Positions 1-49,050 of a DNA stretch of 49,277 bases are shown here, piece after piece. A program made the position numbers and the translations under genes. The DNA is taken from IMG/VR virus record IMGVR_UViG_2534682330_000007; one strand, written 5' to 3'. Positions within the stretch are counted from its first letter, which is position 1, and every line of letters begins with the position of its first letter. Below the pieces are notes generated by a model. It saw only the letters and a list, made by a program, of their open reading frames with translations, did no database searches and was not told the origin of the DNA. The DNA comes from a virus (lineage: Duplodnaviria > Heunggongvirae > Uroviricota > Caudoviricetes).

Positions 1-1284
1 TTACTTCTTCGCCTCTGCAACCACTTTACTACCCACGCCGCGGTTATTGTATTCCCACATGCGGTTGTAGTTAGTGTCATTCAGATTGCGCTGTATTTCG
101 TCGTTATCATCTACGCTGCCGGTATTACCCGCAAACGGACGATTAGAGATCACCGCATCGGCCCACGGTTTAGCCATGTTAAAACCTTCGTTGATGGCGC
201 TATCACGGATCACCACCTGACCGTTGGTATTGGCATCAACATCCAGCGAGCGGCCCAGTTGCGCCACACCATCACCGAAAGCATTGAAACGGCTGTTTAC
301 GGCGAGGAAACCGTAGTAAATGTTGGACAGCGTAGCCGGTGCAAACACATACGCTTCTTGCTGAGTACGTGAGTTCACCACGCGGAATTCGGTGTTATCG
401 AACACCACTGCGCCGCGACCAGAAACGATATCCACATCCCCTTCAATGTAGCTGTTGGTCACCAGCGTACGCGGCTGACGATTCGTTTCCAGACGGTTCT
501 GCACACCGCTGTTGGTGACAAAGAAGGTGTTCTGACGACCGAGAATGTTAACGTTGTTAATCTGTACCTGGTCACCATCAGTACGCAGTGCCACCGCCGG
601 ATGGTTACCTGCATCTACGCTATCGCCCAGCGTGTTTTCGATGGTCAGATTTTGCAGTTGCAGGCCATTGTTTTGTGACCAGAAGACCGCAGAGCAGAGA
701 ACACCGATACTGTCGCTGCGTTTGCTCTGGCAGCTATCGTACATATACCACGCTGGTTTACCTGGCATATATTTGCCGCGCGGGTTGACGTCGTGACGCC
801 AGTCGGCAGGGCTCATGCCACCATCAAGGGAAAGCCCAATCTTCACATCAATCGGTTTTTCACCTGTACCGTACAGAGTAATTCCACCCGGAGCGGCAGG
901 GACATATCCCGTTCCCTGATACTCACCAGGCATCACGGCAATATACTGGCGCTTGTTGGTACGCTTGATAATTGCCGCATCTACCGCCGCCTGAATCGTG
1001 GTATGCGTTACACCTTGAGTGCCCGCCGGGCCGACAACAAAGTCAGGTTGCGCAGGCAGGGTAATCGGGGAAGGATTCCACGCTGCAGCACCTGGTGTCA
1101 GGGATGCAAAATAGTGTTGAGCATCGAAATTCTGCGCTTCTTTTGCCGACAGAATCGGGCGAGAAGAGGTACCAGGCGCGGTTTGATCAGAAGGACGTTG
1201 ATCGGGCGGGGTTGAGCTACAGGCGGTCAGCGTCACGCCAAAAGCCAATGCCAGCGCCAGACGGGAAACTGAAAATGTGTTCAC
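1..1284 (-). CDS. ybhC: Host outer-membrane lipoprotein YbhC (pectinesterase-family), complete 427 aa
   Basis: ORF track 427 aa with N-terminal lipoprotein signal (LTACSS); recalled match to E. coli YbhC, which flanks attB of lambda. Confidence 0.85.
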   Translation of the reverse strand: MNTFSVSRLALALAFGVTLTACSSTPPDQRPSDQTAPGTSSRPILSAKEAQNFDAQHYFASLTPGAAAWNPSPITLPAQPDFVVGPAGTQGVTHTTIQAAVDAAIIKRTNKRQYIAVMPGEYQGTGYVPAAPGGITLYGTGEKPIDVKIGLSLDGGMSPADWRHDVNPRGKYMPGKPAWYMYDSCQSKRSDSIGVLCSAVFWSQNNGLQLQNLTIENTLGDSVDAGNHPAVALRTDGDQVQINNVNILGRQNTFFVTNSGVQNRLETNRQPRTLVTNSYIEGDVDIVSGRGAVVFDNTEFRVVNSRTQQEAYVFAPATLSNIYYGFLAVNSRFNAFGDGVAQLGRSLDVDANTNGQVVIRDSAINEGFNMAKPWADAVISNRPFAGNTGSVDDNDEIQRNLNDTNYNRMWEYNNRGVGSKVVAEAKK

Positions 1285-1330
1285 AGGTTGCTCCGGGCTA
1301 TGAAATAGAAAAATGAATCCGTTGAAGCCT

Positions 1331-8170: not shown

Positions 8171-8303
8171 TTTTTGGGACTCCTGGCTGATTAAGTATGT
8201 CGATAAGGCGTTTCCATCCGTCACGTAATTTACGGGTGATTCGTTCAAGTAAAGATTCGGAAGGGCAGCCAGCAACAGGCCACCCTGCAATGGCATATTG
8301 CAT
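8139..8303 (-). CDS. cIII: cIII (FtsH inhibitor), 54 aa; below the ORF-track size cutoff
   Basis: Hand translation of the minus strand from ATG at 8303: MQYAIAGWPVAGCPSESLLERITRKLRD, as recalled for lambda cIII; overlaps kil as in lambda. Confidence 0.85.
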   Translation of the reverse strand: MQYAIAGWPVAGCPSESLLERITRKLRDGWKRLIDILNQPGVPKNGSNTYGYPD

Positions 8304-8375
8304 GGTGTGCTCCTTATTTATACATAACGAAAAACGCCTCGAGTGAAGCGTTATTGGTATGCGGTAACGCCGCGC

Positions 8376-16215: not shown

Positions 16216-16578
16216 GTGAATACCTACAGCATCACATTACCCTGGCCTCCGAGCAATAATCGCTATTACCGCCATAATCGCGGGCGCACGCACGTCAGCG
16301 CAGAGGGGCAGGCATACCGCGATAACGTCGCCCGAATCATTAAAAACGCAATGCTGGATATCGGCCTGGCTATGCCTGTGAAAATCCGCATTGAGTGCCA
16401 CATGCCGGATCGCCGTCGCCGTGACCTGGATAATCTGCAAAAAGCCGCTTTTGACGCACTCACCAAAGCAGGTTTCTGGCTGGATGATGTTCAGGTCGTT
16501 GATTACCGTGTTGTGAAGATGCCCGTTACCAAAGGTGGGAAGCTGGAGCTGACCATCACCGAACTGGGGAATGAATGA
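16216..16578 (+). CDS. rusA: RusA Holliday-junction resolvase
   Basis: 120 aa [74 protein letters not shown] matches E. coli DLP12 RusA; GTG start. Confidence 0.92.
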
Positions 16579-16593
16579 TGTTTGAGTCTTAAT

Positions 16594-16716
16594 ATGGCAG
16601 AACGTATTCGCCACCGCTGGATACGCCTGCGCTTATATCGTTTCCCCGGTTCTGTTTTGACCGATTACCGGATACTGAAGAATTACGCCAAAACACTGAC
16701 AGGAGCAGGAGTATGA
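16594..16716 (+). CDS. ylcG: Small protein, 40 aa, YlcG-like (DLP12); below ORF-track cutoff
   Basis: Hand translation MAERIRHRWIRLRLYRFPGSVLTDYRILKNYAKTLTGAGV between rusA and Q, the position of ylcG in DLP12. Confidence 0.5.
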   Translation: MAERIRHRWIRLRLYRFPGSVLTDYRILKNYAKTLTGAGV

Positions 16717-16801
16717 AGTCAGAGATAACAATCAACTAATACTGTTTTGTTGATTTTTGCTTGTAATTGGCGTTCTGGTCTGAGTTTTGTGGAGTAAGTT
16801 G

Positions 16802-17185
16802 ATGCGTGATATTCAGATGGTTCTTGAGCGTTGGGGAGCGTGGGCGGCTAATAATCATGAAGATGTGACCTGGTCGTCCATTGCCGCCGGTTTTAAGGGA
16901 TTAATTCCTTCAAAAGTAAAATCTCGCCCACAATGTTGTGACGATGACGCGATGATCATTTGCGGGTGCATGGCCCGTCTGAAAAAGAACAACAGCGATT
17001 TGCACGATTTATTAGTAGATTATTATGTAGTCGGTATGACATTCATGTCACTGGCAGGTAAGCATTGCTGCTCTGATGGTTATATCGGGAAAAGGTTACA
17101 GAAGGCTGAGGGCATAATTGAAGGGATGTTAATGGCATTAGATATCCGGTTAGAGATGGATATCGTTGTTAATAACTCTAATTAA
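16802..17185 (+). CDS. Q: Late-gene antiterminator Q (phage 82 / DLP12 QuuD type), 127 aa
   Basis: ATG 16802; [75 protein letters not shown] as recalled for QuuD/Q82, unlike lambda Q. Confidence 0.9.
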
Positions 17186-17325
17186 TATGCCAATTGTTTA
17201 CTAAAAATTATTAAAAATGGGGCGTTGAGACGCCCCCAAAAATAAAGGGTAATATATAACAGAAGGTTTATATAGTTAGAAGCAAGGTTGTGCTTCTAAA
17301 GGAAGTGGCTTGAGGGAGCCACTTA

Positions 17326-17365
17326 TATGTTGGGGAGGCAATGCCTCCCGCAACATATCTTTTTC
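17326..17365. terminator. Long inverted repeat (ATATGTTGGGGAGGC-AAT-GCCTCCCGCAACATAT) then CTTTTTC; terminator between Q and the convergent porin gene
   Basis: Read from sequence immediately 3' of the porin stop codon and downstream of Q. Confidence 0.5.
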
Positions 17366-17374
17366 GTAATCAGA

Positions 17375-18472
17375 TTAGAACTGGTAAACCAGACCTACAG
17401 CAACGATGTCATCAGTGCTTACACCGAGTGCTTTAGTGAAGTCATTTTTGTCAAGCAGGTTGATTTTGTAATCAACGAAAGTAGACATATTTTTGTTGAA
17501 GTAATAGGTTGCACCTACATCAACATATTTGACTAAGTCCTGATCGCCCCATACTCCAAGATCCTTACCTTTAGATTGCAGGTAAGCAACGGACGGACGC
17601 AGACCGAAATCGAACTGATATTGTGCAACAGCTTCGAAGTTTTGGGCTTTATTAGCAACGAAGTGATCAGCAAATACAGTCATATTCTGGGTTTCAGAAT
17701 AGGTAGTGGCCAGGTAAATGTTGTTAGCGTCATATTTCAGACCTGCGGCCCAAACTTCTGCATTTTTACCGGAAGCAAATACTTCAGGAAGAACTTTCCC
17801 TGCATTAACTTGAGTGTCGGTACGATCAGATTTTGCATAAGTTGCACCGATACCGAATCCTTCGTATTCATAGGTAGCAGAGAAACCGAAGCCATCACCG
17901 TTACCTTCGGTGTAGTTATCGAAATCGCTACGATCGTTTTTGCCTTGGTACTGAGCAGCAAAGTTCAGACCATCAACCAGGCCAAAGAAGTCGTTGTTAC
18001 GATAGGTTGCAACACCAGTGGTGCGACCAGTCATGAACACATCTGTTTGGGTCCAGGTATCGCCACCGAATTCTGGCAGAACGTCAGTCCACGCACCGAT
18101 GTCGTATGCTCCACCGTAGTTACGGCCGTAATCGATTGAGCCGTAGTCACCGAATTTCAGGCCTGCAAATGCAAGACGGGTTTTGTCTTTGGAGGAACCT
18201 TGAGATTCAGCGCGGTTGCCTTTGAATTCATATTCCCACTGACCGAAACCAGTCAGTTGATCGTTGATTTGGGTTTCACCTTTGAAGCCAAGACGGGCAT
18301 AAGTAGTATCACCATCATCTGCATCATTAGAGGAGAAGTAGTGCTTAGCATTAACTTTCCCGTACAGATCCAGCTTGTTACTGTCTTTATTATAAATTTC
18401 AGCTGCCTGAGCAGACATCGCCATCAGTACTGATGCAGCTACAGCAGAAATTGCCACTGTTAATTTTTTCAT
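17375..18472 (-). CDS. nmpC: Outer-membrane porin of the OmpC/OmpF family (phage Lc / NmpC type), intact 365 aa
   Basis: Signal peptide [23 protein letters not shown], porin beta-barrel signature with C-terminal ...VAVGLVYQF; same position and orientation as nmpC in DLP12 and lc in phage PA-2. Confidence 0.92.
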
Positions 18473-18900
18473 CGTGAGCCCTTTTTTTTGAACTATTATT
18501 AAAAAATGATGTCACTGCGCGATAAATATTCATCTAATCAATGTGATTATTTCAAGATGTAAGTTTTGGTTTCTCGTTTGATTTGTGAAGTAGATCTCTA
18601 TTTTTATCTGAACTTTTTTCTATCGAATCCTATTCATGGCTCTTGGCTGAATAAAAATAAATCTATTAGCCAATTTATATTAACGGCTATTATTTATAAG
18701 TGCTCTATAATTTGAAGGTTCAATTTAAACCAGCTAAAAATAACACTGGAAATTATTTGTTGGTTATTTGTTGAGATTTGCTTATGTATTTGTAGTGGTG
18801 TTTTCAATACTCGGTAGCATTCTCGCAAATATCATTTAGTGGTTTACGTACGTAAAAAATTGGTTATGCTGTTAAGAGTGGTTACTTCGTCACACAGCTT

Positions 18901-18934
18901 AAACCCGCCGTCGAGCGGGTTTTTCCATTTTTTG
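18901..18934 (+). terminator. Intrinsic terminator, candidate tR' of the late operon, about 130 bp upstream of the holin
   Basis: AAACCCGC-CGTCGA-GCGGGTTT stem-loop followed by TTCCATTTTTT; the late promoter pR' and the Q utilisation site were not located. Confidence 0.5.
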
Positions 18935-19061
18935 AGTCTCGATATTAGCTGATAACCCAATACCTGAGTTATTCACTGACTCCGAGTCTGTTACGTTTCT
19001 GCTTTTTTGCGATACGTTGTATTCCCTCAATTTACACCCGCTTTGTCTGCGAGGTGGGGTT

Positions 19062-19277
19062 ATGAAATCCATGGATAAGTTAACAACGGGTGTCGCCTAT
19101 GGCACCTCAGCAGGTAGTGCCGGGTACTGGTTTTTACAGCTGCTAGATAAAGTCACGCCCTCACAGTGGGCGGCAATTGGAGTGCTGGGTAGCCTGGTAT
19201 TTGGCCTGCTGACGTACCTGACAAACCTTTATTTCAAGATTAAAGAAGACAAGCGTAAGGCTGCACGGGGAGAGTAA
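19062..19277 (+). CDS. S: Pinholin, phage 21 S21 type, with dual-start motif (MKSM)
   Basis: 71 aa [71 protein letters not shown], matching S21 as recalled. Confidence 0.92.
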
Positions 19278-19281
19278 TTCA

Positions 19282-19626
19282 ATGACTCAAAACTATGAAC
19301 TGATTGTGAAAGGGATCCGCAATTTTGAGAATAAAGTTACGGTAACTTTAGCGTTACGGGACAAAAAACGCTTTGACGGTGAAATTTTTGACCTGGACAT
19401 CTCGCTGGACCGTGTTGAAGGTGCCGCGCTGGAGTTTTATGAGGCAGCAGCCAGAAGGAGCATCAGACAGGTCTTCCTGGATGTTGCTGCCGGGTTATGT
19501 GAAGGGGATGAGCTGTCGCCGGAAAAGCGCCCCATAATTTTAGAGGCGCAGAATGTGTGGATAACCTACAAAGGAAAGCTACCGGGAAGAATTACTGGTT
19601 CTCTGAAGACTCCGCCGAAATGGTAA
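19282..19626 (+). CDS. Hypothetical protein, 114 aa, inserted between holin and endolysin
   Basis: ATG 5 nt after the holin stop with GGGGAGAG upstream; no family recognised; absent from the phage 21 and lambda lysis cassettes. Confidence 0.55.
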   Translation: MTQNYELIVKGIRNFENKVTVTLALRDKKRFDGEIFDLDISLDRVEGAALEFYEAAARRSIRQVFLDVAAGLCEGDELSPEKRPIILEAQNVWITYKGKLPGRITGSLKTPPKW

Positions 19627-19864
19627 TTTCACCAGCATATTTTTCTTCCAGTAATACCGCCAGCCACTTGAAAGAATTTTGTTGTTGCTGGGACCATTTG
19701 GGGTTGAGTGATTCAAGCTGGAGCGATGCCAGTGTTGGTTGCATTTGTTCCTTGGGAATTGAGAATGCCAGATATGAAAATGCGACAGTAAGGGCATTTA
19801 CATCATCCCGAAGCCTGGAAATGCAGTCGAGCAACTCCTGTAGAGAAATGGTGCTATTGTCCAT
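19592..19864 (-). CDS. Hypothetical protein, about 90 aa, convergent with and overlapping the 114-aa gene
   Basis: ATG at 19864 preceded by AGAGAGGA; 3' ends of the two genes overlap by 35 nt; an alternative plus-strand ORF (19557-19889) covers the same DNA. Confidence 0.45.
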   Translation of the reverse strand: MDNSTISLQELLDCISRLRDDVNALTVAFSYLAFSIPKEQMQPTLASLQLESLNPKWSQQQQNSFKWLAVLLEEKYAGEITISAESSENQ

Positions 19865-19969
19865 AAACAATCCTCTCTATTGTATTTAACTATTCCTTGC
19901 CTGATTCAACAGGCCGGGACAGATAAACATATCCAGGGTTCAGAAACCGATAAATCCTGATAAATATCC

Positions 19970-20503
19970 ATGAACGCAAAAATCAGATACGGCCTGTCGG
20001 CTGCCGTTCTGGCACTGATTGCCGTCGGTGCGCCTGCGCCTGATATTCTCGACCAGTTTCTGGATGAAAAAGAAGGTAACCACACAACGGCATACCGCGA
20101 TGGTTCCGGCATCTGGACCATCTGTCGGGGTGCCACGGTGGTGGATGGAAAACCCGTTTTTCCCGGTATGAAACTGTCGAAGGAAAAATGCGACCAGGTT
20201 AACGCCATTGAACGGGATAAGGCGCTGGCATGGGTGGAGCGCAATATTAAAGTGCCACTGACCGAACCACAGAAAGCGGGTATCGCGTCATTTTGTCCCT
20301 ATAACATTGGCCCCGGTAAGTGTTTCCCGTCGACGTTTTATAAGCGGCTGAATGCCGGTGATCGTAAAGGTGCATGCGAGGCGATTCGCTGGTGGATAAA
20401 AGATGGTGGGCGCGATTGCCGCATACGTTCAAATAACTGCTATGGACAGGTTATTCGTCGTGACCAGGAAAGCGCATTAGCCTGTTGGGGGATAGATCAG
20501 TGA
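19970..20503 (+). CDS. R: SAR endolysin (T4-lysozyme family with N-terminal signal-anchor-release domain), phage 21 R21 type
   Basis: 177 aa; N-terminal hydrophobic segment [16 protein letters not shown] then catalytic E...D...T motif region ([20 protein letters not shown]). Confidence 0.92.
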
Positions 20504-21162: not shown

Positions 21163-21684
21163 ATGAATATCGTGCCACTTAATTACAAAGGTGAAATTGT
21201 CAGTTTCAACACTGATGGTTGGATCAACGTCACAGGTGTTGCTGAGAGATTTGGGAAACGCATTGATAACTGGATGCGTTTGGCAGAAACGCTTGAATAC
21301 GTTCGTGCTTTAGACGAAGCGTTGACCGGGAAAGAATCTCAAATTTTACATCCCTCACAATCGAGGTATGTAAAAACCAGCAAGGCACGAAAGGACAGGG
21401 GTGGTGGTACGTGGCTACATCCAAAACTTTCAGTTGCATTTGCCCGTTGGTGTGATGCTCGTTTTGCTGTGTGGTGCGACCTGCACATTGATAGTCTGCT
21501 TCGCGGTGAACTGACTGAGCAGCAGAAATATGAGCAAGCATGTCGCATTCGCGATGACCGGAAATCAAAAGCCAGCAATGGGGCAAGAGAGATGGCTCGC
21601 TGGCGATGGGATAAGCCGGTTATTGAAGCAAATGTTGAGTACTGGCGCGAGCAACTGCAGTTGACTCTCGATATCGCGTGCTGA
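21163..21684 (+). CDS. KilA-N domain protein, 173 aa
   Basis: N-terminus MNIVPLNYKGEIVSFNTDGWINVTGVAERFGKRIDNWMRLAETLEYVRAL typical of the KilA-N DNA-binding domain. Confidence 0.7.
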   Translation: MNIVPLNYKGEIVSFNTDGWINVTGVAERFGKRIDNWMRLAETLEYVRALDEALTGKESQILHPSQSRYVKTSKARKDRGGGTWLHPKLSVAFARWCDARFAVWCDLHIDSLLRGELTEQQKYEQACRIRDDRKSKASNGAREMARWRWDKPVIEANVEYWREQLQLTLDIAC

Positions 21685-46222: not shown

Positions 46223-46803
46223 TGGCATTCAGAATGAGTGAACAACCACGGACCATAAAAATTTATAATCTGCTGTCCGGAACTAATGAATTTATTGGTG
46301 AAGGTGATGCATATATTCCGCCTCATACAGGTCTGCCAGCAAACAGTACCGACATTGCACCGCCAGATATTCCAGCTGGCTTCGTGGCTGTTTTCAACAG
46401 TGATGAGTCATCGTGGCATCTCGTTGAAGATCATCGGGGTAAAACGGTTTATGACGTGGCTTCCGGCGACGCGTTATTTATTTCTGAACTCGGCTCATTA
46501 CCGGAAAATGTCACCTGGTTATCCCCGGAAGGGGAGTTTCAGAAGTGGAACGGCACAGCCTGGGTGAAAGATGCAGAAGCAGAAAAACTATTCCGGATCC
46601 GGGAGGCGGAAGAAACAAAAAACAGCCTGATGCAGGCAGCGAATGAGCATATTGCGCCACTTCAGGATGCTGTAGATCTGGAGATCGCAACGGAGGAAGA
46701 AACTTCGTTGCTGGAAGTCTGGAAAAAGTATCGGGTGTTGCTGAACCGTGTTAATACAACAACTGCTCCGGATATTGAATGGCCAGTAGCACCTATAGGG
46801 TAA
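46222..46803 (+). CDS. tfa: Tail fibre assembly protein Tfa
   Basis: 193 aa [78 protein letters not shown]; start overlaps the stf stop. Confidence 0.9.
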
Positions 46804-47724: not shown

Positions 47725-48306
47725 CTTTATCAATGACTTATCTCCCGACTTCCCGCCTTGCTTTTCCTAAACAGAACAATCGTAGAATATTCTTGAAGGG
47801 TTAGATCGTCACTGTTTTCTGTTCGATACTGTGACATTCAGCACTTGATTCGCTATGGATCTGACAGGAAGGTTTTGAGCGAAAATTTGCAGTTATTCAG
47901 TCGTTTTCTTATCGGTCACCATTATTCTTTTAGACATTGATCCTACAAAGCTGCCGCAAAGTTGGTGGTAGGAACTGAAGTTGCGTAGAGAAGGGGTCAA
48001 TACCCGGAGGCAAACATGGGCTGGCAAAAGTGTAGCGGTATTAGGCGCAGCTATTTAGCCTAGTTATGTTTTATGAAAACTTGATATCATATAAGTGTCT
48101 TACTTATTGGCTGTAAATAAGTTTTTCCTAAGGAATTGTTTCTTGAGTATCATTTGTAACTGTAACGGAATTTATAATCCTTTGCTTTATTGTTACGGTA
48201 TTTTTTATCACACCCTATTTTTAGTGGTTTTTTATACTGAAGTTTGGCAAAGTGAACTTTATATACATATACTTCATCCTGGTTTCAGTTAAATTGGGTG
48301 GATGAT

Positions 48307-49050
48307 ATGGCAACTACATGTTCAGTTATATTGATTTTGGAGTCCTTTGATGTTTATTTCGGAAAAGAGAGTGTGTTTCTGGAGAGAGGTTCATCTGTAC
48401 TTGTCGACTCTAGCTCTAGAGATTTTTTCCTGACATATCCTGAAAGAGTGATAGTGGCGGATTTTGGCGCTGAGTTTATTAGTCGCTATTTGAAAGCTAA
48501 TAACTTAAGGGATATTTCTGATTGTAGGGAATATCCATCTTATTTAAAAATAAACTTTGCTGACTTCAGTTTAATTAAAGGATTAATTAGTTGGGCTAAT
48601 CACTGTGCTGAATACATAGAAATTTTTGATGAGTCTATTGCTTTTACATGTCTCTCTGCATTTTCTTCTGAAAAACAATTTGGAGTATTTCTGTTTGAAT
48701 GTTTGAAAAGCACAGGGGCTAAAGTTAAAACGATTATTCATACGGATTTATCTGCACCATGGCGTCTTAAGGATATATCATCAAGATTATATCTCAGCGA
48801 AAGTTTACTAAAGAGGAAATTGAAAGAAGAGGGGGTATCATTCAGTAAGATCATACTTGATGAGAGGATGCAAATGGCTGAATATTTACTCTGCACTCGT
48901 TGTTATCCTATTAGTAAAGTAGCTAAGGTCTGTGGTTATGCCAGTGTCTCATACTTTACTTATGTATTTAGACGTTATTTTGGTGTTTCTCCAAGTCAAT
49001 ACTCTCAGAGGAGTTCAGAAAGTAAAATTCTTACTCACCAGGGAATCTGA
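48307..49050 (+). CDS. AraC/XylS-family transcriptional regulator (prophage cargo; AppY/PatE-like position)
   Basis: ATG 48307; C-terminal tandem HTH region (ISKVAKVCGYASVSYFTYVFRRYFGVSPSQY) typical of AraC family; AT-rich gene downstream of the tail fibre genes. Confidence 0.8.
   Translation: MATTCSVILILESFDVYFGKESVFLERGSSVLVDSSSRDFFLTYPERVIVADFGAEFISRYLKANNLRDISDCREYPSYLKINFADFSLIKGLISWANHCAEYIEIFDESIAFTCLSAFSSEKQFGVFLFECLKSTGAKVKTIIHTDLSAPWRLKDISSRLYLSESLLKRKLKEEGVSFSKIILDERMQMAEYLLCTRCYPISKVAKVCGYASVSYFTYVFRRYFGVSPSQYSQRSSESKILTHQGI

Follow-up and report, generated by a model that had tools for sequence, protein, structure and literature searches.

Why does a complete outer-membrane porin gene lie antisense between the Q antiterminator gene and the lysis genes of a lambdoid prophage, and what does this position mean for late transcription and for the lysogen? 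The locus occupies positions 16,802–19,061 of the window, by which we mean the whole 49,277-nucleotide stretch of Caudoviricetes DNA that was analyzed (IMG/VR record IMGVR_UViG_2534682330_000007). The region is very probably the nmpC/lc-ipeX moron cassette of lambdoid prophages (DLP12/PA-2 type), placed antisense between the Q gene and the late promoter pR'. The porin part of the locus contains the following features:

17375–18472, minus strand: porin gene of the NmpC/Lc type, 365 aa (open reading frame, Pfam, NCBIfam, PDB and K-12 comparison)
18404–18472, minus strand: porin signal peptide, residues 1–23 (alignment of mature PDB chains)
17208–17374, minus strand: porin 3'UTR of ~167 nt, homologue of the ipeX sRNA locus (fold, terminator scan and K-12 comparison)
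18473–18841, minus strand: porin upstream region, AT-rich, about 27–36% GC (composition)
18479–18483, minus strand: porin ribosome-binding site AAGGG, within the upstream region
18584–18599: candidate CRP-like site, TGTGA-N6-TCTCT (read from the sequence)

On careful re-translation, the porin gene is one continuous 365-aa frame with no premature stops and no frameshifts. Pfam Porin_1 (PF00267) covers the protein over the full domain (1–337/337, E=6.9e-156). The porin passes the NCBIfam cutoff of the OmpC subfamily (522.5 bits; cutoff, 484) and falls below both the PhoE and the OmpF equivalog cutoffs, which places it at the OmpC-subfamily level only. The mature OmpC, OmpF and PhoE chains in the PDB all start to align at residue 24, which is consistent with a signal peptide cut after residue 23. 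The L3 motif PEFGGD corresponds to residues 133–138, and the C-terminus ends in VYQF with a terminal phenylalanine. OmpC and OmpK36 are the best solved relatives, and these matches (E about 1e-134) suggest that the protein probably folds into a trimeric, 16-stranded outer-membrane β-barrel. The original prediction placed a complete 365-aa porin gene, signal peptide included, between Q and a tR'-like terminator and in opposite orientation to the late operon; the reading frame, Pfam, the PDB and the terminator scan confirm it.

The proposed Lc/NmpC-type identity also holds. The porin shares 362 of 365 residues with NmpC of the K-12 prophage DLP12 when IS5 is removed, and the gene order rusA-ylcG-quuD-nmpC-essD is common to both. 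The accompanying statement that K-12 nmpC is inactivated by IS5 is correct, with IS5B found inside nmpC in NC_000913, after codon 346, whereas the copy here is uninterrupted. DLP12 is decayed, in contrast to the element here, which is a full-length prophage adjoining ybhC. A 434B recombinant with a DLP12 segment is 98% identical across 2.4 kb. For lc (protein 2) of phage PA-2, the cluster member named 'outer membrane porin protein LC / NmpC' is 99% identical (362/365). Salmonella OmpD and OmpC, OmpF and PhoE belong to the same fold family, and phage records frequently label the prophage gene OmpD; these general porins are core genes, whereas the porin here is prophage-borne. Compared with K-12 NmpC, the porin carries G121, G149 and T151, which are substitutions in the L3 region. 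The idea that all three are peculiar to this allele was rejected: V121G is seen only in the allele of this window, but G149 and T151 are common among wild alleles, and K-12 is the outlier at these two positions.

The intact copy had been regarded as noteworthy, which overstates the case. Of 5426 complete E. coli genomes, 2394 (about 44%) contain the 2.4-kb module at ≥80% coverage, as do 36 phage records. The porin frame is open, with 360 or 365 aa, in 75/75 related IMG/VR loci, so that an intact porin is the norm. The IMG/VR loci with the same Q are collinear in all cases (80/80), and the truncated locus L005 agrees over its available DNA. An intact nmpC is typical, and the IS5 allele of K-12 is the exception; because the intact state is usual in wild strains, the finding is real yet ordinary. 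The NmpC/Lc porin with its IpeX tail is already known and is carried by many lambda-like E. coli prophages. Published descriptions of the porin moron and of ipeX go back to the 1970s–2000s, and the presence of both gives this window little significance of its own.

The original prediction overlooked the 3'UTR of the porin, which is evidently the ipeX locus and offers a published route to the down-regulation of OmpC and OmpF. It lies directly 3' of the porin stop codon, is ~167 nt long and has an intrinsic terminator at its end. Four hairpins are followed by a terminator hairpin (17219–17236) and a T-run, as located by the terminator scan of the minus strand, and the fold reaches an MFE of -63.4 kcal/mol (z=-9.4 versus shuffles). 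The K-12 nmpC-quuD intergenic region (ipeX) differs from this 3'UTR at a single base, which is located in a loop. According to two papers, IpeX is a 167-nt DLP12 sRNA that resides within the porin transcript and represses OmpC/OmpF (PMC12197685; PMC5069750), and a review also attributes it to phage PA-2 (PMC8065619). A search of the whole window with Rfam at gathering thresholds placed no family over the porin 3'UTR. The only Rfam matches lay elsewhere in the window and were to IS009 and to the lambda cIII thermoregulator.

These properties raise the alternative that the IpeX RNA is the main selected product, with the porin mRNA chiefly as its carrier and the porin itself as a substitute pore that makes up for the loss of OmpC and OmpF. 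The 3'UTR structure is far beyond chance, and ompC and ompF are the targets given in published work (PMC12197685; PMC5069750). Variation points in the same direction, with 14.8% variable columns in the 3'UTR versus 20.7% in the porin coding sequence; among 25 distinct variants of the 3'UTR, few stem positions vary, and the changes mostly fall in loops or yield G-U wobbles. However, the porin frame is invariably intact in the related loci, the roles of the porin and IpeX are compatible with each other, and IpeX was reportedly characterized in multicopy in the original study. We consider it unlikely that the RNA is the main product under selection, and we retain the reading of a porin-ipeX cassette.

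The late-control part of the locus contains the following features:

16802–17185, plus strand: Q antiterminator gene of the QuuD type, 127 aa, Q21/Q933W family (PF06530)
18843–18877, plus strand: late promoter pR' (ungapped homology to the post-Q region of phi24B and Sakai Sp5)
18901–18933, plus strand: tR'-like intrinsic terminator (terminator scan and fold)
19062–19277, plus strand: phage-21-type holin/antiholin, 71/68 aa, first gene of the lysis cassette (PF04971, E=2e-35)

The Q gene had been described as 82-type, which does not agree with its family assignment. Q matches PF06530 over its full length (1–118/118, E=8.5e-54) and gives no other Pfam match at E≤10; PF06323 in particular is not matched even at this threshold. 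PF06530 is the Q21 family and PF06323 is the Q82 family (PMC9388147), and Q is therefore a member of the Q21/Q933W family. Q21 of phage 21 is the sole solved relative in the PDB and only a distant one (E=7.6e-8, residues 8–87). Q shares 79% identity with Q of the Stx2 phage phi24B (residues 1–126) and 78–83% identity with Stx-phage Q genes generally. An identical protein, named QuuD, is present on at least 1000 contigs.

The position of pR' had been called unresolved, with a suggested location near 18800–18900; the location is right, and the promoter can be placed through its homology to the mapped PR' of Stx phages. Alignment with phi24B by blastn yields two blocks only, Q (16800–17134) and pR'-tR' (18842–18924), which are spaced by 88 bp in phi24B and by 1707 bp here. 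By homology, pR' consists of a -35 element TTTACG (18843–18848), a 16-bp spacer and a -10 element TATGCT (18865–18870), with a predicted start at A18877. From the -35 element through the -10 and the start region to the first hairpin, identity to the Stx phages (933W, Sakai Sp5 and phi24B) is 77%, in the same register. In PMC7547250, the 3' end of tR' and an RNase E site are mapped at +258 and +173 of the Stx-phage PR' transcript, and a start 7 nt past the -10 element reproduces both distances in phi24B and Sakai Sp5. The Sakai coordinates of that paper disagree with NC_002695.2 and imply a constant 142-nt offset when the terminator position is taken from the near-identical phi24B locus; the published distances were therefore used instead. 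The segment from pR' to tR' (18842–18933) is variable at only 7 of 92 columns in 68 variants, compared with 19–33% in its immediate flanks. Among variants with an identical Q, this segment is 99.4% conserved, whereas the flanks vary.

A promoter located directly after Q (17186–17374), as in lambda, would instead drive late transcription antisense through the porin gene and shut it off at induction. This is the canonical site in lambda, phage 21 and the Stx phages. However, the promoter scan of 17186–17374 reveals no plus-strand promoter-like site, the interval is occupied by the ipeX hairpin array, and the homologue of the mapped Stx-phage PR' sits at 18842–18924, which together make a promoter at that site highly improbable.

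With pR' at 18843–18877, a 14-bp palindrome, TTTACGTACGTAAA (18843–18856), overlaps the -35 element. This palindrome, which is conserved, and the hexamer TACTTC at +7 to +12 (TACATT in the Stx phages) are candidate Q-binding and sigma-dependent pause elements. The QBE of phage 21 (ATTGAGCA/AATGAGCA) was sought in the sequence here and is absent. The tR'-like terminator comprises a hairpin (18901–18922; 8-bp stem and 6-nt loop) followed by a T-run; counted from the pR' start, it spans approximately +25 to +57, and no other such site lies between pR' and the holin gene. The same layout is found in phage 21, in which a leader of about 50 nt likewise stops at a promoter-proximal terminator (annotated tR', +3 to +50). 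Phage 21 also shares the Pfam family of Q and the S21-type dual-start holin; in contrast to the element here, it has no porin, and tRNA genes follow tR'. The mapped tR' of the Stx phages is a second terminator, at +258. The dual starts of the holin are located at 19062 and 19071 (MKSMDK, read from the sequence), and the records of 434B and phage 21 carry the same holin/antiholin annotation.

The DNA between Q and pR' thus evidently constitutes an antisense cassette of about 1.7 kb (17135–18841), in which the porin gene is equipped with a ribosome-binding site, an upstream region and a terminator of its own. In the Stx phages, by contrast, pR' overlaps the end of Q without an intervening cassette, Q is 17 residues longer than Q here, and the cargo (tRNAs and stx) is sense-oriented and located downstream of tR'. 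pR', tR' and the holin gene all follow the cassette, and Q must therefore work in trans at a distance of 1.7 kb from where it is encoded. The position of the cassette between Q and pR' also means that the porin gene is never crossed by Q-modified late transcription. The corrected annotation is a Q gene of the Q21/Q933W family, ipeX at 17208–17374, pR' at 18843–18877 and tR' at 18901–18933.

Expression of the porin depends on a different region. The proximal ~180 bp upstream of the gene are conserved, and the distal part varies most in the whole module. The consensus promoter scan gives one weak minus-strand candidate for the porin, far upstream at 18716–18689. pR' itself matches the consensus at just 8/12 positions and is absent from the scan list; the promoter assignments therefore rest on homology. 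Since the upstream region is very AT-rich, H-NS-type silencing is possible. The porin gene might then be intact yet ordinarily silent in the lysogen, as neutral or conditional cargo that confers no practical lysogenic conversion. A GC content of about 27–33% and the lack of a strong sigma-70 promoter in the consensus scan agree with such silence, as does the nmpC of E. coli BE, which is called 'quiescent' in the title of a paper cited by PMC3333887. In opposition to this reading, the amino-acid variation of the porin is grouped in discrete segments, a pattern expected of surface loops; this, together with the open frame in every related locus, indicates selection acting on the protein. Moreover, PMC9928086 reports lysogen transcription of NmpC of the LF82 prophage Perceval at 10-fold over the prophage background. 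A silent porin is accordingly doubtful.

We favor the view that the porin is probably expressed in the lysogen and may exclude porin-dependent phages. The cassette would be transcribed in the lysogen from its own promoter, without dependence on the repressed late operon, and the outer membrane would gain an extra general-diffusion porin. Processing of the 3'UTR would release IpeX, which would lower OmpC and OmpF. The net porin swap would alter permeability and reduce or remove the OmpC receptor for OmpC-dependent phages. Phage PA-2, for which OmpC was identified as the receptor in the literature of the 1970s–80s, embodies the same concept, in which the lysogen acquires a porin and loses OmpC; the likeness to lc is drawn from the named cluster member. 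A literature search on PA-2 and Lc lysogenic conversion returned nothing. Loss of OmpC might also lead the phage to exclude itself. The C-terminus of J, compared in search of a link to the phage's own receptor, is 96% identical to that of mEp460 and 59% identical to that of lambda, and the comparison yielded no tie to a known receptor.

We tentatively suggest that Q21-family lambdoid phages may have a dedicated cargo slot between Q and pR', with the porin-ipeX cassette as one of its interchangeable contents. If this is true, the cassette would represent a receptor-swap anti-phage module within a defence hotspot, the unannotated occupants of the slot would be candidate new defence genes, and the variable slot could aid the mining of lambdoid prophages for new anti-phage genes. 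The slot was sampled in 99 IMG/VR loci, all with the pR' core TAAGAGTGGTTAC in common and with a Q gene of the PF06530 type upstream of it. It is empty in 24 loci, contains the porin in 33 and contains other cargo in 42. Like the porin, the other cargo is antisense in most loci (36/42), and it includes a complete Kiwa system (KwaA+KwaB) and the candidate defence systems PDC-S20, PDC-M53A, PDC-S42 and PDC-M68A.

The window carries a full-length lambdoid prophage whose genes stand in their integrated order, with ybhC and the integrase followed by the early, nin, Q, lysis, head and tail regions. The left flank (window 1-1330) encodes YbhC (NCBIfam equivalog, E=7e-219). Because ybhC adjoins the lambda attachment site, the integration site is apparently attB-lambda or close to it, and not that of DLP12, the cryptic prophage of E. 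coli K-12. The features concerned are as follows.

1-1284: host gene ybhC
1419-2489: integrase
16216-16578, plus strand: rusA
16582-16716, plus strand: ylcG (NCBIfam YlcG)
16802-17185, plus strand: Q, the late-gene antiterminator, 127 aa
17219-17236, minus strand: terminator hairpin, then a T-run
17375-18472, minus strand: porin, 365 aa
19062-19277, plus strand: holin of the phage-21 type, dual starts MKSM

The porin is intact, as originally predicted. Its frame contains no stops or frameshifts, the Porin_1 match runs end to end (E=6.9e-156), the NCBIfam OmpC-subfamily cutoff is passed, and the C-terminus reads ...VYQF. The mature chains of OmpC, OmpF and PhoE align from residue 24, which indicates a signal peptide of 23 residues. 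DLP12 of K-12 has the identical order rusA-ylcG-quuD-nmpC-essD-rrrD, and its nmpC is split by IS5B, in agreement with the inactivation by IS5 that had been stated. Once IS5 is taken out, NmpC of K-12 and the window porin differ at three residues (121, 149 and 151). G149 and T151, on either side of the arginine in the constriction zone, are common among wild alleles; it is K-12 that deviates. The third difference, V121G (codon 18110-18112), affects RNYGV, a conserved motif at the base of loop L3; among 13 distinct porin proteins (the window's and 12 IMG/VR variants), only the window's has it. In NCBI, the exact protein is WP_001468347.1, present on only 3 contigs of the protein collection; a 99%-identical protein in its 90% cluster is on at least 1000 contigs, under the name 'outer membrane porin protein LC / NmpC'.

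Of 5426 complete E. coli genomes, 2394 carry the 2.4-kb module (window 16700-19100, counted at ≥80% coverage), as do 36 phage records, among them the inducible phages PhiR26_1, mEp332, Kati and Turner and the 434B recombinant that acquired the DLP12 segment. In IMG/VR, 80 loci have a Q identical to the window's at 99-100%; all 80 are collinear, and 75 span the module. Since the porin frame is open in 75/75 of these (365 aa in 33, 360 aa in 42), the intact copy is the rule and the K-12 IS5 allele the exception. The cassette itself is already known as nmpC/ipeX of DLP12 and lc of the lambdoid phage PA-2; our contribution is its annotation, namely the Q family, the coordinates of the late promoter pR' and its terminator tR', and ipeX.

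Q had been described as 82-type. Instead, it matches PF06530 over positions 1-118 of 118 (E=8.5e-54), which is the Q21 family, and not PF06323, the Q82 family (PMC9388147); no other Pfam match was found even at E≤10. The sole solved relative is Q21 (E=7.6e-8), and the closest distinct group in tblastn is the Q of Stx phages (78-83% identity). By sequence, we assign Q to the Q21 family, within which it is of the QuuD/Q933W type.

The late promoter was placed by comparison with Stx phages. Blastn of the window against the Stx2 phage phi24B gives only two aligned blocks: Q (window 16800-17134), and window 18842-18924, whose counterpart is the annotated pR'/qut/terminator directly after phi24B Q. 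Because only 88 bp separate the blocks in phi24B, against 1707 bp in the window, the alignment delimits the cassette as 17135-18841, in which a replaced Q C-terminus is included. The aligned promoters are TTTACG-16 bp-TATGCT (window) and TTTACG-16 bp-TATCAT (phi24B), and phi24B is identical to Sakai Sp5, another Stx prophage, at 289/290 positions over the promoter-terminator stretch. For Sakai, the tR' 3´ end is reported 258 nt from the primary PR' start, and cleavage by RNase E, between GU and AUU, at +173 (PMC7547250). A start at the A 7 nt past TATCAT reproduces both values exactly; the homologous window base is A18877, within the 18800-18900 interval where pR' had been expected. With a cut at +173 and a 74-nt product, 11 of the published 258 nt are left over. 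Conservation supports this predicted placement.

Variable columns over 68 distinct module variants
16802-17185, Q: 3.6%
17186-17374, Q-porin intergenic region (ipeX): 14.8%
17375-18472, porin coding sequence: 20.7%
18473-18650, porin upstream, proximal: 21.9%
18651-18841, porin upstream, distal: 32.8%
18842-18933, pR'-tR': 7.6% (7/92)
18934-19061, leader: 18.8%
19062-19264, holin, 5´ part: 8.4%

Q and its target are thus co-conserved on either side of a variable cassette, and the most conserved feature is the block TAAGAGTGGTTAC around the start. Since 17186-17374 contains no plus-strand promoter-like site, late transcription is predicted to begin downstream of the porin gene and never to cross it.

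The expected tR'-like terminator before the lysis genes is the hairpin 18901-18922 with its T-run, the sole terminator-like element ahead of the holin, at about +25 to +57. This layout resembles that of phage 21, whose annotated tR' spans +3 to +50. The phage 21 QBE (ATTGAGCA/AATGAGCA) is absent from the window, and neither a Q-binding element nor a sigma-dependent pause element could be assigned at pR'. A perfect 14-bp palindrome, TTTACGTACGTAAA (18843-18856), overlaps the -35; its phi24B and Sakai counterpart TTTACGATCGTAAA has a central TA-to-AT change and is still perfect, and that of PhiR55_1 is imperfect (TTTACAATCGTAAA). The palindrome is possibly a protein-binding site, for Q or another protein. 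At window 18917, in the 3´ arm of tR', GCTGG stands in place of GCGGG in 37/75 related loci; the resulting C-U mismatch should make for a weaker terminator before the lysis genes. The homologous Stx-phage hairpin (L002 2983-3005 and L003) lies at +27 to +49; it is GC-rich and has a run of 7 T. Although it looks like a good terminator, transcription evidently continues past it, as the PR' transcript has been mapped at 258 nt (PMC7547250). In the window, the hairpin is the only candidate tR'.

The 167 nt from the porin stop to the minus-strand terminator, overlooked in the original prediction, form four hairpins besides that of the terminator (MFE -63.4 kcal/mol; z=-9.4 versus shuffles). They differ by one loop base from the K-12 nmpC-quuD intergenic region, and changes among 25 variants fall mainly in loops or yield G-U pairs. 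This 3´UTR is the ipeX locus; Rfam holds no IpeX model. IpeX has been described as a 167-nt sRNA of DLP12, produced within the porin mRNA (PMC12197685), and as a repressor of ompC and ompF that acts with the involvement of Hfq (PMC5069750, PMC3333887); it is attributed to PA-2 too (PMC8065619).

At least 120 IMG/VR contigs contain the pR' core TAAGAGTGGTTACNTNGNCAC. Among the matches listed, we compared 99 loci (within L088-L206) with a PF06530-type Q upstream (40-100% identical to the window Q), taking the interval between this Q and the conserved core (TAAGAGTGGTTAC...), equivalent to window 17135-18841.

Contents of the Q-pR' interval among the 99 loci listed
Empty: 24/99, Q-to-core 41-75 bp
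Porin, antisense: 33/99, Q-to-core 1671-1690 bp
Other cargo, antisense: 36/99, 632-2479 bp (range joint with sense cargo)
Other cargo, sense: 6/99, within the same joint range

Among these matches, the porin accompanies only QuuD-type Q of 95-100% identity. PADLOC identified a complete Kiwa system (KwaA 1.9e-83, KwaB 2.3e-150) and the candidate systems PDC-S20, PDC-M53A, PDC-S42 and PDC-M68A. Lipoproteins (L130, L147) and unknowns account for the rest, which includes several two-gene cassettes with membrane proteins matching no family; PhiR55_1, inspected separately, has a lipoprotein-like gene here. Given such varied contents, the junction looks like a variable moron/defence slot; a shallow literature search found no paper naming it.

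The cassette lies outside the late transcription unit and is self-contained, with an upstream region, ribosome-binding site, signal peptide, barrel, structured 3´UTR and terminator. In the lysogen, it would be transcribed from its own predicted promoter, adding NmpC/Lc to the outer membrane and releasing IpeX, which would lower OmpC/OmpF; the outcome would be a porin swap. Purifying selection that keeps the frame open supports expression, as does the clustering of amino-acid variation in residues ~186-191, 219-232, 272-276, 305-320 and 344-354, as expected for exposed loops. Support by analogy comes from the homologous NmpC of LF82 prophage Perceval, transcribed 10-fold above prophage background (PMC9928086). 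The caveats are the 27-33% GC of the porin upstream region and a title cited in PMC3333887 that calls nmpC of E. coli BE quiescent. Exclusion of porin-dependent phages is plausible; no receptor for this phage itself could be deduced from J. The porin mRNA contains CAGUGGC (window 18453-18459, minus strand, codons 5-7), complementary to GCCACUG, the 5´ seed of RybB. The E. coli nmpC mRNA is a RybB target (PMC3333887).

Elsewhere in the prophage, Rfam matches the lambda cIII thermoregulator element (8258-8316, 88.5 bits) and, in the tail-fibre assembly region, IS009 (46565-46763, 212.9 bits). A DUF1327/YdfR-like gene (19282-19626) lies between the holin and the endolysin, and ~340 bp of this interval (19282-19969) hold only unassignable ORFs on either strand. 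The endolysin (19970-20503) has a hydrophobic N-terminus, like a signal-anchor-release endolysin. A KilA-N domain protein (21163-21684) directly past the spanin genes and a YdeO/GadX-like AraC-family regulator, below equivalog cutoffs, near the right end (48298-49050) are possible further morons.
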